The translations under genes were made by a program, and so were the position numbers. This document shows, one piece after another, positions 16,883 to 53,258 of a stretch of DNA of 57,594 nucleotides. This DNA comes from Prorocentrum cordatum (lineage: Eukaryota), in the NCBI GenBank assembly GCA_963575745.1, contig CAUYUJ010000016.1:62001-119594 (forward strand), given 5' to 3'. The notes under the pieces were generated by a model that saw only the letters and a program-made list of their open reading frames with translations, did no database searches and had not been told where the DNA came from. How positions within the stretch are numbered: position 1 is the first letter of the stretch; every line of letters begins with the position of its first letter.

Positions 16883-16930
16883 CTTCCCGAGAAGGTCGTA
16901 CCGCTCGCGCAGCTTCGGGTCGCTGAGCAC
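16883..16930 (-). CDS. J-domain protein exon (VLSDPKLRERYDLLGK), end of the J domain
   Basis: 48 nt, cag| acceptor, probable AAG|GA donor; matches the VLSDP...YD..G consensus. Downstream exons not identified (gap at 16302). Confidence 0.88.
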
Positions 16931-18459
16931 CTGGCGCGCGGCACCGGGGCGGCCTCCACGCCCTGGCGCTGCCTCGGGCCGCTCGGGGGGCCTGCCGAGG
17001 CCCGGCGGCACTGCCCGGGGGGGGGGGGGGCTGTTCGCGCGCAGCCCGCAGCCTTACCGCATGGGACGGCAGAGAGGACAGATCCCGCTGAGGGCAAATG
17101 CGGATGGGGACACATCAGGGATCCCTGAGGGCTGACGGTCCCGCTGAGGGTCTCGTATCGGGCGCCGCGGCCGCTCTCGAACGCCCTTGCACAGGGCTGG
17201 CAGCGGCCCCACTCCTCCGATCCGAGGAGGCGGGCCGACAGCCCGACGCAGCGAGAGGAAGACGTTGGGAGCACTGGGGTGTCACCTGACAACGCAGTTC
17301 ACAACAGTGCCCAGGAGGAAGTGGCAAAAACTTCTGCTGCTCAAATCCTGGAGCTCTGAGTCACTCGAACTGTCCGAAAGGGGGCCACCAGGGTGTGAGT
17401 GCTGTCCCCGTCGAGTACGGGACAGGTTCTGCCTCCCTTTGGGGGTTACCTCACAAGGCTGAGCTAACTGCCTGCTGTCGGGCGTGCAGGCCTTACCACA
17501 CCGTGAGCAGAAGATTCGCATACACTTGCTACACTGCTGCAGACGACGGGTGTGGTGCAAGCTTTGGCCTCCAATCTTTTGGGGGGCCGCGGTAGGGAGC
17601 AACTTCCCTCGCCCCCCGCTCGGCACACCGCGACTCACACGGCTGGAAGGTCGACTCCTGATGCGAAGCCATACTACATTTCTTGCAAGCGGATCTGGGG
17701 GCAGCGCGGGCCCAGGAGTGACACAGGAGTCCCTGTGCGCCCGCGCGAGCCTCAGAAGAGCGGGCACGCCGTGGAGGAGGAGGAGGAGGAGGAGGAGGAG
17801 GAGGAGGAGGAGGAGGGGGAGGAGGAGGAGGAGGAGGAGGAGGAGGAGGAGGAGGAGGAGGAGGAGGAGGAGGCCAACCCCCGCGGTCCGAGGATCAGCC
17901 TGGCTGCTCCTCGCCAAGGCTGAGCCTAAAACGGTGCTTTTCGCTTTCGTTTTCCCTCGTGTTGTCTTCCATCCGCCTTTACCGGGAACGTAAGTCGAAA
18001 CGAGAACGGCCCACGAAGTCGCCCAAACACCGTTTCAAGGTCCACCCCTGCTTCTCGCCAGGAGCTCTCCGCGCCCTCCCATGCACTGGCGCCCGCTTGG
18101 CGTCTCTCTTTCATCTGTGGCAAGGATCGGGGCCACAACGTACCGAGACCACGCTATCTCGGCCACCTGGGAGGCGAGATTGTCAGCGCACTCGTTGCCA
18201 AACGCATCGCGCAGCTGGGCAGGGGAGGGGTTGGCAAGTCTGCGAACGTCTACCTGAGGCGGGGTCCAGACGAGTTTGACTTGGCCTGCGCCGCGGGAGG
18301 CGTGAATCGGGAGCGGATGTCAGCATTGCTACCAAGCCTCCGACGGGGTCCGCCAACTTGCTGACTTCTGCTCCAAGTCTCGAGAAGCGGCCACTTGTCA
18401 GTAACGTACCTCTGGTTCCCGACCGTGGTCTCGAGGACCTTGCAACGCAACCAGCATCT

Positions 18460-18594
18460 TTAGGTCGGGCATGTCCTCCTGCAGGCGGATTTTGGACGAG
18501 AAATAAGACACACTCAAAACATCCTCCCAAATGTTCAAACTATGTTTGTACTATTTTTGAATGTTCCTCCTGTAGAGGGACACGCCTGACTTAA
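18460..18594 (+). mobile_element. MITE family A copy
   Basis: ttaggtcgggcatgtcctcctgcagg ... cctgtagagggacacgcctgacttaa. Confidence 0.8.
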
Positions 18595-18599
18595 ACCAT

Positions 18600-18840
18600 T
18601 CTCCGCTGTTTGCACAATTTGTCTGCGCCCCTGCAAGGTCGTTCCCAGACCCGCCGCGTGGCGCCACACCCGTGAGGAAGGATACCTACAACTGCCGGCA
18701 CTAGCCGTGCGACGCCGAACGTAGTCCGAAAACCTCCAACCTGACCCGTCCCCGAAGATCGTGACAAACTGCTGGGCGTCGCGGGGGAGGTCCGAAGAGG
18801 GATCCGAAATCAACAATTCAAATGAGGGGCTCTCGGGCAA
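18600..18840 (-). mobile_element. Possible retroelement RNase H N-terminal relic
   Basis: FVTIFGDGSG resembles the first RNase H catalytic motif. Confidence 0.35.
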
Positions 18841-19422
18841 AGCTGGGAGTGGTTTCGCTCACAGCGGGAAGGCCTCGAAGCCAGTAACTGGGGGAAGATT
18901 CCTGCTGGGCTACGGCGTGAGCCAGAAGATGCTGGGAAGACTCAAAGTCATTGTGACTCCTATTATCAGTACATTCCCACACTTGATGGCAGAGTGACTC
19001 GCTCATGAAATTGACTCGCGGGCAAAGCTTGTCAACGTCGTAGCCTGCTGCCCTTATTCTCTCTCTCTCTCTCGAGGCCACTGCGCCCCAATGACGACGA
19101 CGACTTTGAGCGCCCACTGTCGCCGTCCCCGTCCACTCCGTGCTCCTCAAATTCTCTCTTGACGAGCAACAGAAGAGAGGAGGTCAGAGGAGGCCAGGAT
19201 GGGAAAAGCGGAGTGTGGCTTTCAGAAGGGAGCACTCCTCGTGTACGCCACTGTGAGGAGCGCCGTGCCAGTGGGCCAGCGACAAGCCACACCCCGAAAG
19301 AGGGGACGGGCATACGAGGCGAGACGGAAGAGGAGGAACATGCTCAGGGAGGAGAGGACATATTCGGCATCGAGCCCAGGCCGGGCCGCCCCGCCCCCGC
19401 CCTCCTGGGGGAGCGCGCCCGC

Positions 19423-50584: not shown

Positions 50585-51510
50585 CCGCTGTGCACATGGC
50601 CGTGCTGCCACGCCTGTCACACGGACCGTTTTTTTTTTTTTTTTTTTTTTTTTTTTTTTTTTTTTTTTTTTTTTTTTTTTTTTATATATATGTATATATT
50701 TTAATAATAAACACAAAAAACAAAAACTACTGTGGTGCACATGGCCGTGCTCTCAGCCCCTGCCGCACGGCCACGAGCGCCCGTGCAGAACACATGCTCC
50801 GGCGCACCTGGCCGTGCCCGTCGCACGGCCGCGACCCCTGGCGAAAAGCACACACTGCGGTGCACAGAGCCGTACTCCCGCCCCTGCCACACGGCAGCGA
50901 ACACACTACGGCCTCCTCCTCATCTTCTTCTCTTATTCTGCGTATTCTTCTTCTTAACCCTTACTCCTCCTCCTCCCTTTCCTCCTCCTCCCCTCCTCGT
51001 CCTCCTCCTCCCTTTCCTCCTCCTCCTCCTCCTCCACCCCTCCTCCTCCTCCCTCCTCCTCCTCCTCCTCCTCCCTTTCCTCCTCCTCCTCGTCCTCCTC
51101 CTCCTCCCTTTCCTCCTCCTCCTCCTCCTCCTCCTCCTCATGGCCGTGCTCTCGCCCCAGTCACCCAACCACGGTCACTTGTAACAAATACACTGCGGTG
51201 CGCATGGCCGTGCTCTCTCACCTGTGTCACACGGCCACGGCCCCTTGCGCAACAAATACGCTGCGGTGCACCTGGCCTTGCTCCCACCCCTGCCTCGTCC
51301 TCCTCGTCGCCCTCCCACCTCCTCCTCCTCCTCCTCCTCCTCCTCCTCCTCCTCCTCCTCCTCCCTTTCCTTCTCCTCCTCCTCCTCCTCCTCCTCCTCC
51401 TCCTCCTCCTCCTCATGGCCGTGCTCTCACCCGTGTCACACGGCCACGGCCCCCTGCAGCAAACACACTACGGTACACCTGGCCTTGTTCCCACCCCTGT
51501 CACGCCCAGG
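50585..51510. repeat. Degenerate tandem repeat interrupted by poly-T and (CCT)n tracts
   Basis: catggccgtgctctc...cacggccacg motif recurs several times. Confidence 0.7.
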
Positions 51511-52985
51511 AATTCATAAAACCACTCCTAGGACCGCACGCTCTCACCGGCCCACCTCCTACTCCTGGGTACGTCTCTCCACGTTTGCTGCTGTTCGGGT
51601 GCTTCGCTGGGGTAATTTAGTTCCAGGCCTTAGGAGAGAGGCACACCTCGAGGAATTGCCTCCCGCATCTTCTCGCGACGCTGCACCCCGAGGGTGTCCA
51701 GAGACCCCCCCTGAGTTCCCCCCCCCGAGGCCTCCAGAGAAGCCGAGAACAAATCCCAAGAACCCCCCCCATTTCGAAAAAAGAGAGGCCCGCCAAAAAA
51801 CCTCCGTGCCCAGACATCCGACGACGTGACTTTTTTCAGTGCTGGGCCCCCGAGCACCCGACCCCTTCTCCAAGGGGACAATGATTTGGTCGACCCACAA
51901 GGGCGTAGGGGGTGGTGAAATAGATCTGGGGCAATTGTGTTGCCAATGTACTGCGCCGGAGAGTTGTATTGCATTGCGTTGCGACGAATGTCTTGCGCGC
52001 GAGAATCCGGCACCACATTTGCGCCCTGGATCGTCTTGTACACCCCGAATCTATTGAAACCCCTCTCTATTGCACCATGTCCCTTGCACCACCCCCTTTT
52101 CGCTGAACTCCCCTTTTGGGGTCAACCAGATCCTCCTCCTCCTCCTCCTCCTCCTCCTCCTCCTCCTCCTCCTCCTCCTCCTCCTCCTCCTCCTCCTCCT
52201 CCTCCCCCTCCCCCCCCCTCCTCTCCTCCCCTCCTCCTCTCCTCCTCCTCCTCCTCCTCCTCCTCCCCTCCTCCTCCTCCTCCTCCTCTCTCCTCCTCCT
52301 CCTCCTCCTCCTCCTCCTCCCCCTACCCCTCCCACCTCCCTCCTCCTCCTCCTCCTCCTCCTCCTCCTCCTCCTCCTCCTCCTCCTCCTCCTCCTCCTAC
52401 CCCTCACCCTCTTGTGGGTCAACCAGAAATGGTTCGCCCCAGATCTATTCTCGACGGCCCCCAGGTCCGCCGACGGGCCCCCAGGGGCCGACACCGAGGA
52501 CAGAGATGCCTGGCTCCAGGGCACCCTCGCGCCGTCGGAGCCCACGCGCGCGCTCCCTGGTCGAAGGCGAGCGAGCTAAACTTTTCATCTCCGCGCCAGC
52601 TTCTGAGTGGGGGCGATGCGATGGGGGCCAGCTCGGGGGGGGGGAAAGGCTGACCTGGAACCGGCGACGCGCCGCCGACGGATCGGCGAAGGGCACCCGG
52701 CAGCGAAGCCACGCGGTCCTGGGCGGCGGGGGCTCTCAGGCCCCCCATCGGCGACGAATGGGCGCTCTCTGGGGGGGGATCGACGCGCTGCCCCGCTGCG
52801 CCTGCCCCCCTCGTCGTTGCCCCTTGGCATTCGGGCCGCCACGTCGGGTCTCCAGCGGCCGCTCGGGGCGACCCCGGACGCCCTCGGCGAGGCGCGGCTG
52901 CCGGCACGCATCCCGAGGCCGGGAAACCGCCGAGCGCCGGCGAAAACGCCCGGACGCCTGAAGCCTCGAAGCCTCTCGTCCCCTA

Positions 52986-53162
52986 CAGCGGAGGCCAGTC
53001 CACAAGAAACCTCCCACAGGAAACCCAACCCTGAGACCCCCAGTACGTCCACTGATGTTCGGTGTGGGGACGTCACGCTTTCCACAGCAAAGCCATCGAG
53101 ACACAAGATACCCAAGGGGCCCTGGAGGCAAGCAGGGTGTTTCTTGCCATGGGTCTCCACTG
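52986..53162 (+). mobile_element. MITE family C copy
   Basis: TA|cagcggag...ctccactg|CA. Confidence 0.8.
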
Positions 53163-53204
53163 CAAGCCTGAGCCTCTCCCCGCCTAACGCTGCCCCTGGG
53201 CTTC

Positions 53205-53258
53205 CAGGTCGAAGGCGCGCTGGAGGGCCTCCGGCGTGTTCACCGCGCCCCGCACCAC
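53205..53258 (-). CDS. Probable upstream exon of the J-domain protein (VVRGAVNTPEALQRAFDL)
   Basis: gag| acceptor; RG..NTPEA motif recalled from the same family; 3' boundary uncertain. Confidence 0.55.

Follow-up and report, generated by a model that had tools for sequence, protein, structure and literature searches.

The Locus and Its Two Genes

The stretch of DNA analysed here (the window) covers the final 57.6 kb of scaffold G000:C16 (119,594 nt) in the 4.1-Gb assembly of the dinoflagellate Prorocentrum cordatum, and two genes lie on its minus strand, one inside the other. The outer, or host, gene encodes a J-domain protein, and the inner one is PDX1, located between host exons C and D in an intron of 21 kb (Table 1). 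Two separate spliced RNAs arise from this one strand, as seen in contigs of public RNA-type runs aligned to the locus; for one of these runs, X16, the record states poly(A) RNA-Seq, and most of the others are taken to be RNA by guess.

The host gene is larger than the window. It fills the whole scaffold, where its exons are collinear on one strand over 114 kb and correspond to residues 470-827 of P0002, a full-length relative of 925 aa translated from a 3.1-kb RNA contig, and its N-terminal exons are found on scaffolds C18770 and C4503. Its other introns reach 13-20 kb. The assembly contains no exon for residues 615-640; the exon or exons concerned probably sit in a gap of undetermined bases (N) at window positions 16302-16401. 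The public protein model for this scaffold, P0001, misses exon G and continues into the intron instead.

Table 1. Features of the locus and related loci. Positions refer to the window unless a scaffold is named; UTR, untranslated region.
Feature	Position	Strand	Remarks
Host exon A	53205..53258	-	About residues 471-488 of P0002; earlier exons on other scaffolds
Host exon B	48013..48081	-	B-C join in 4/4 runs
Host exon C	44303..44362	-	GT donor; in the shifted register, GC donor at 44307
Host intron C-D	23002..44302	-	Assembled length 21,301 nt = 460 nt + 100 N + 20,741 nt
Scaffold gap, 100 N	43743..43842	.	True size possibly different from 100
Host exon D	22957..23001	-	RNA contigs
Host exon E	21449..21529	-	Start of the J domain
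Host exon F	19423..19494	-	HPD motif
Host exon G	16883..16930	-	RNA-contig joins
Four more host exons	2637..14520	-	~14520-14470, ~7876-7817, ~3992-3918, ~2672-2637; tblastn of P0001/P0002
Relic spliced leader	31483..31504	-	15/22 letters; 81 nt upstream of ATG; at RNA 5' end
PDX1 exon 1	31352..31497	-	5' UTR, ATG at 31423
PDX1 exon 2	30400..30576	-	RNA contigs
PDX1 exon 3	29955..30230	-	Pfam SOR_SNZ, E 1e-51
PDX1 exon 4	29386..29590	-	RNA contigs
PDX1 exon 5	29075..29148	-	RNA contigs
PDX1 exon 6	28457..28681	-	Stop 28519-28517, then 3' UTR; run X10 leaves at 28490
PDX1 exon 7	24925..25041	-	3' UTR
PDX1 exon 8	24323..24832	-	3' UTR; contig ends at 24323-24381
237-nt intron in PDX1 coding sequence	29149..29385	-	TC..GA, position ambiguous by 2 nt; repeat family; in-frame stop
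3.4-kb 3'-UTR intron of PDX1	25042..28456	-	Ends in GA, paired ends
92-nt hairpin repeat	24833..24924	-	TC..GA; absent from RNA contigs
LINE-like element, frameshifted	35600..40418	-	Copies up to 94% elsewhere
DIRS-like retroelement fragment	40839..43742	-	142-nt 97% direct repeat at 3' end; copies 93-95% elsewhere
Intron-rich PDX1	G000:C19794:45558-166848		121 kb, at least 16 coding pieces
Decayed intronless PDX1 pseudogene	G000:C5971:20125-21269		20/22 relic leader
Same-family introns	G000:C17137:696043-699830 and 694550-695535		Hosts of this and the next two loci: an exostosin, an RCC1-repeat and a third gene
Same-family intron	C436:474064-476719		Removal restores frame
Same-family intron	C14554:295970-297039		Removal restores frame
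Spliced leaders in other host introns	G000:C16:34204, 9804, 46167	-, +, -	22, 22 and 21 of 22; each heads a long intronless frame

Splicing of the Host Gene Across the 21-kb Intron

As proposed in an earlier reading of the letters alone (the original prediction), seven small minus-strand exons, A to G, join in frame, and all of them were found in place, with donors GA, GT or GC and acceptors AG at the six introns between them. The joins G-F, F-E and E-D occur in four of four RNA-type runs from four studies, while the A-B join is based on the proteins P0001 and P0002. When a 133-nt stretch around exon C was used as the query, exactly one contig per run was retrieved from X1, X5, X9 and X16 (1,854-3,112 nt), and in all four the loose ends of these contigs match the end of exon B on one side and exon D from 23001 on the other. 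The RNA join of 44303 to 23001, which the original prediction had suggested looking for, is therefore present. No downstream partner of exon C other than exon D was seen in any of the four runs, in contigs, which lose rare forms. In X1, X5 and X9, the contig with exon C is probably the same one that joins exons D, E, F and G, because the contig depth values are equal.

The proteins give the same picture. The public model P0001 had already made the C-D join, and both P0001 and P0002 are continuous through exons A-D into the J domain. In addition, all 37 aligned host relatives run uninterrupted across this region, and exons C and D have one genome match each in a search that was not exhaustive.

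Regarding the splice ends, the GT donor, the AG acceptor and the heptamer AGGCGAG at both ends of the intron are present as described. The repeat permits a second splice reading, GC..AG|G at 44307/23007, which yields an identical mRNA. As described by Mendez et al. (2015, PMC5032977), repeats of 2-9 nt at both intron ends, kept once in the mRNA (identically repeated intron boundary, IRIB), are general in dinoflagellates; AGGCGAG is likewise doubled at the intron ends and single in the mRNA, its 7 nt fall within the published range, and it differs in nothing from that pattern. Its interpretation as a special signal was hence rejected. In this species, AGG acceptors amount to 79.7% (peer-review file of PMC10666404), so an AG|C acceptor is not rare either. 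A longer exon D, using an in-frame AG|G located 30 nt upstream (23031), was also discarded, as the RNA contigs enter at 23001.

A single contig without N (16402-43742) carries both PDX1 and exon D, exon C does not stand between the two, and in the assembly PDX1 (31497-24323) falls wholly within 44302-23002, the order from 31499 to 24323 being confirmed by the PDX1 mRNA itself. The nesting is consequently independent of the N gap, since PDX1 stands between that gap and exon D; provided that C and D are spliced in cis, PDX1 is inside the intron whatever the gap contains. The gap had been raised as a caveat, which holds for the length of the intron and not for the nesting, and as a cause of the nesting it was rejected on logic. 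With the C-D join in four of four runs and PDX1 upstream of exon D on a single contig, the same-strand nesting put forward originally is upheld.

Structure and Expression of PDX1

Six coding exons and two 3'-UTR exons make up PDX1, from about 31497 to about 24325; the six coding exons had been recognized beforehand, and the two in the 3' UTR had been missed. The open frame encodes 322 aa, and SOR_SNZ on exon 3 scores 176 bits against a curated cut-off of 27, by which the product is classed as a member of the PDX1/SNZ family, a predicted pyridoxal 5'-phosphate synthase subunit of vitamin B6 synthesis. All five coding joins occur in four of four runs, and at four of them two contigs were counted, one of which is probably derived from a paralogue. 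In the 3' UTR, the join 24925/24832 was found in all four runs and the join 28456/25040 in three of the four, X10 using 28490/25041 instead. At the 5' end, the alignment extends to 31499 in X5 and X10, whose contigs have six and four further letters, respectively, and contigs of X1 and X9 stop earlier. The 3' end of the gene is situated only 1.3 kb above host exon D.

Origin of PDX1

Immediately at the RNA 5' end lies a relic of the dinoflagellate spliced leader, whose internal AG at 31499-31498 is likely a trans-splice acceptor. Using the 22-nt leader sequence from PMC7245778 as the query, a score of at least 15/22 was reached at 3 of the window's 3,894 AG-anchored minus-strand positions, the PDX1 relic included. 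Four other PDX1 loci were found, on scaffolds C2997, C15828, C5971 and C19794. The first three carry relic leaders with 17, 17 and 20 of 22 letters, respectively, 81-101 nt before the ATG, and the intron-rich gene on C19794 has none, with a best score of 11/22 within 550 nt.

The C19794 gene is nonetheless the closest paralogue of the window PDX1, at 90.9% compared to 86.4, 85.3 and 79.6% for the other three. From its at least 15 intron positions, the window gene shares one for certain, after codon 24, dinoflagellate retrogenes being recognized by a parent with fewer relics and by retention of under 40% of its introns. Two 3'-UTR pieces that are 10 kb apart in C19794 adjoin in the window PDX1 (E 1e-5 and 2e-4). 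The present introns of the window PDX1 match dispersed repeats. Loose ends of X5 and X10 RNA contigs correspond to the 5' UTR of the C19794 gene, which is therefore likely expressed. Full-length leaders are also held in its introns, at 165739 and 137959. Two intron positions common to the window PDX1 and the copy on C2997 (after codons 175 and 268) were considered and set aside as not significant (P ~0.11 among 24 phase-0 AG|G sites).

The relic leader at the RNA 5' end and the lack of almost all introns of the closest paralogue suggest that the window PDX1 is likely a retrocopy of a spliced-leader-capped mRNA from an intron-rich paralogue. Retrogenes with relic leaders were reported to account for more than 20% of Symbiodinium genes (Song et al. 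2017, PMC5585692), and the window PDX1 resembles them in its degenerate leader, which lies 50-100 nt ahead of the ATG, and in its few parental introns. It differs from them in lacking TTT(T/G), in having gained seven introns and in being located in an intron of another gene.

Non-Canonical Introns in PDX1

Three segments of PDX1 missing from the RNA contigs (the 237-nt coding intron, the 3.4-kb 3'-UTR intron and the 92-nt hairpin repeat) have no GT/GC/GA-AG ends in any register, and all of them have paired ends and allow a reading that terminates in GA. In the case of the 92-nt hairpin, absence from RNA may reflect a skip during reverse transcription instead of splicing. The 237-nt intron is a member of a repeat family in which the other copies show 69-88% identity (40 of 1,294 candidates scored), so it can be argued not to be a fresh insertion. 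It combines membership in a repeat family, non-canonical ends, paired termini and absence from RNA contigs, the properties by which introners of the Amoebophrya type are recognized.

The 3' end of this family reads GA|T in 24 of the 32 copies that were fetched, most of which have no obvious coding sequence downstream, Pfam matches being obtained in three of nine frames scanned. In three other genes, on C17137, C436 and C14554, removal of a TC..GA segment restores a continuous frame, as judged from the reading frame and not from RNA; the intron on C17137 was checked against the protein P0069, and an additional TC..GC intron is present there. On examination, the members of the same family on C20643 and C16800 showed no clear 5' end.

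Repeat-derived introns with paired, non-GT/GC/GA-AG ends are documented in Amoebophrya A25 and A120 (PMC7789003; review PMC11453091). The three PDX1 introns are alike in repeat origin, paired ends and non-canonical boundaries; however, Amoebophrya is a parasite, whereas the present case concerns a free-living core dinoflagellate and a recurrent TC..GA boundary. Introner-like introns of Prorocentrum cordatum itself were reported in PMC10666404, whose passages on them mention no non-AG intron ends. These introns are relevant to annotation, as gene finders tuned to GT/GC/GA-AG are expected to mis-model them.

How Host and Nested Gene May Be Expressed

The account in which we place considerable confidence is that of an expressed DnaJ/DnaJ-X gene with a 21-kb intron that contains, on the same strand, an expressed and spliced PDX1, PDX1 being likely a retrocopy of a leader-capped mRNA and likely a unit of its own, and the host being likely spliced in cis. 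According to this account, a retroelement enzyme would have inserted a PDX1 cDNA into the host intron, and small repeat elements would afterwards have created the seven new introns. The AG within the relic leader would now accept a fresh leader, and the 3' end near 24325 would complete a separate PDX1 mRNA. In host transcripts that pass the PDX1 signals, the exon C donor would pair with the exon D acceptor, giving the full-length chaperone mRNA. The original prediction regarded the case as special and possibly in need of trans-splicing, a view that is not sustained, as cis-splicing over a long intron suffices and nested genes represent 6.5-25% of dinoflagellate genes.

Several observations weigh against this account. 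Contiguity across 24323-23002 is given by the assembly only, no source of genomic reads having been found among the 24 runs listed, in each of which at most 0.30 of the words were present. The intron position after codon 24 is common to the window PDX1 and its presumed parent, and the parent yielded no exon for coding bases 498-577, which prevents a comparison at the position after codon 175. Around PDX1, neither a target-site duplication nor a clear poly(A) relic was detected, only 7-nt repeats at chance level and an A-rich patch. The relic leader is devoid of TTT(T/G), which Song et al. proposed as the retrogene promoter, and the addition of a leader past 31499 is deduced instead of directly seen. 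Finally, contigs cannot reveal strand, transcript starts or rare chimeras.

A bolder version, which we consider doubtful, would derive both mRNAs from one primary transcript, with a promoterless PDX1 freed by recycled-leader trans-splicing and three introns removed at TC/TT..GA by a structure-guided route described, in the literature searched, only for Amoebophrya. If this were true, long dinoflagellate introns would act as expression cassettes for retrogenes.

It is also unlikely, and somewhat more so, that the nesting is real and PDX1 merely lacks a start of its own, its mRNA being cut from the host primary transcript, or from the excised intron, via polyadenylation and the trans-splicing of a leader to the relic AG. 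The shared strand agrees with such processing, as does a relic that keeps its AG but not TTT(T/G); however, none of the contigs runs from exon C into PDX1, polycistronic expression appears to be rare according to a review (PMC11453091), and nested genes of Amphidinium are expressed at 0.07-14 times the level of their hosts, which fits independent control (PMC12584245).

An assembly artefact, in which the contig would be a chimera joined within the 1.3 kb that separate exon D from the PDX1 3' end and PDX1 would really be elsewhere, is improbable. The genome is rich in repeats, a GA-rich simple repeat occupies about 23230-23100, and it is the assembly that vouches for this interval. Moreover, all three 100-N gaps of scaffold C16 fall in introns of the host gene, a pattern that transcript-guided scaffolding would give, so the scaffold order does not count as independent evidence. 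Against an artefact, the other genome matches of the 1.3 kb reach at most 88% (58 nt), the longest covering 374 nt at 72%, and this lack of a near-identical copy among the 40 of 4,400 candidates that were scored makes a chimeric join unlikely as far as the sequence can tell. No N occurs between PDX1 and exon D, a mis-join at the N gap would leave PDX1 upstream of the single exon D, and a dinoflagellate genome assembled from long reads contains many nested genes (PMC12584245).

Production of the host mRNA by trans-splicing of two transcripts, the first stopping behind exon C and the second beginning ahead of exon D, would avoid read-through of the PDX1 3' end and suit host exons spread over three scaffolds, but it is highly improbable given the collinearity of the exons, the length of the other host introns, the published dinoflagellate intron of 26,372 bp, a fragmented assembly that explains the spread, and the absence of any leader-like element of at least 15/22 just upstream of exon D.

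Nested Genes in Other Organisms

Nested genes comprise 25.2% of the genes in Amphidinium carterae (PMC12584245), where a host whose exons are short and whose introns are long likewise harbours a multi-exon gene in one large intron, the legend of Fig. 4E describing a nested gene of six exons. The main text of that paper contains neither "same strand" nor "opposite strand", and its passages on nested genes present no evidence of retroposition. In Polarella glacialis, nested genes amount to 8.4% and 6.5% of the total, with confirmation by full-length transcripts, and genes are largely unidirectional (PMC7245778); the example given there is an array of light-harvesting genes, and the corresponding passages do not say on which strand the nested genes lie. 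The human genome has about two-thirds of its nested genes on the opposite strand (PMC4394429), so same-strand nesting is ordinary in humans too. No paper giving the strand of nested dinoflagellate genes was found in the literature search, and the supplements of PMC12584245 and PMC7245778, or Kumar 2009 and Roy et al. 2023, may provide it. The term "nested" does not occur in PMC10666404 or its two supplements.

The nesting of PDX1 is thus real but ordinary for dinoflagellates, and by itself it matters little, being frequent in this group and already spanned by the public model. The locus is useful as a test case, with a host and a guest on the same strand, both expressed, a parent gene that can be named and a leader acceptor that is located. 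It bears on the question of how dinoflagellates transcribe unidirectional gene blocks, either from separate starts or by processing of a host transcript.

Mobile Elements and Leaders in Host Introns

The two elements that share intron C-D with PDX1, previously described as a LINE (long interspersed nuclear element) and a DIRS-like element, are indeed multi-copy repeats, and their class can be assigned only tentatively. RVT_1 was matched in the LINE-like element at E 0.019, below the cut-off, and a sister copy of the DIRS-like element has a reverse transcriptase (RT)/RNase H lead from Atlas. Otherwise, Pfam and PDB sequence searches with the proteins of both elements were blank or below cut-off, and no tyrosine recombinase was identified in the DIRS-like element. 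The frame upstream of the RT in the sister copy (L049:3-521) carries motifs that we take to be cytosine-methyltransferase-like, with no match in Pfam.

Three further insertions in host introns of scaffold C16 begin with spliced leaders, and after the one at 46167 (-) comes a second, degenerate leader. The frames that follow are likely leader-capped retroelements or retrocopies. As near-perfect leaders head intronless frames in these three insertions, leader-capped RNAs have likely been copied into the host gene repeatedly. Another host intron holds a tandem array of units of about 60 nt (window 8540-9900).

Architecture of the Host Protein

The host protein contains the Pfam domains DnaJ, with its HPD motif, and DnaJ-X, and over 824 aligned positions P0002 shows 51% identity to a Symbiodinium protein that bears the name ATJ10, in line with the ATJ10-like label of the original prediction. 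The Symbiodinium proteins so labelled share the same Pfam pair, and the name ATJ10 is an automatic label; the host family has, in addition, an N-terminal pair of predicted actinoporin-like β-sandwiches not seen by Pfam. In the structure model of P0002 (mean predicted local distance difference test score 76.6), these two β-sandwiches span residues 20-330, and in structure they match actinoporin and aegerolysin-type folds best (E ~3e-7, 13-17% identity; Atlas lead 0.92). One may guess at a lipid-binding role for these modelled domains. The middle region of P0002 has a profile match to the C-terminal helices of VPS13 (E 1e-9).

The family has 67 matches at E <= 1e-30, complete members being 885-955 aa long. 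An intronless paralogue at G000:C20972:34555-35598 covers residues 342-727 at 39% identity without stops and is a possible retrocopy.

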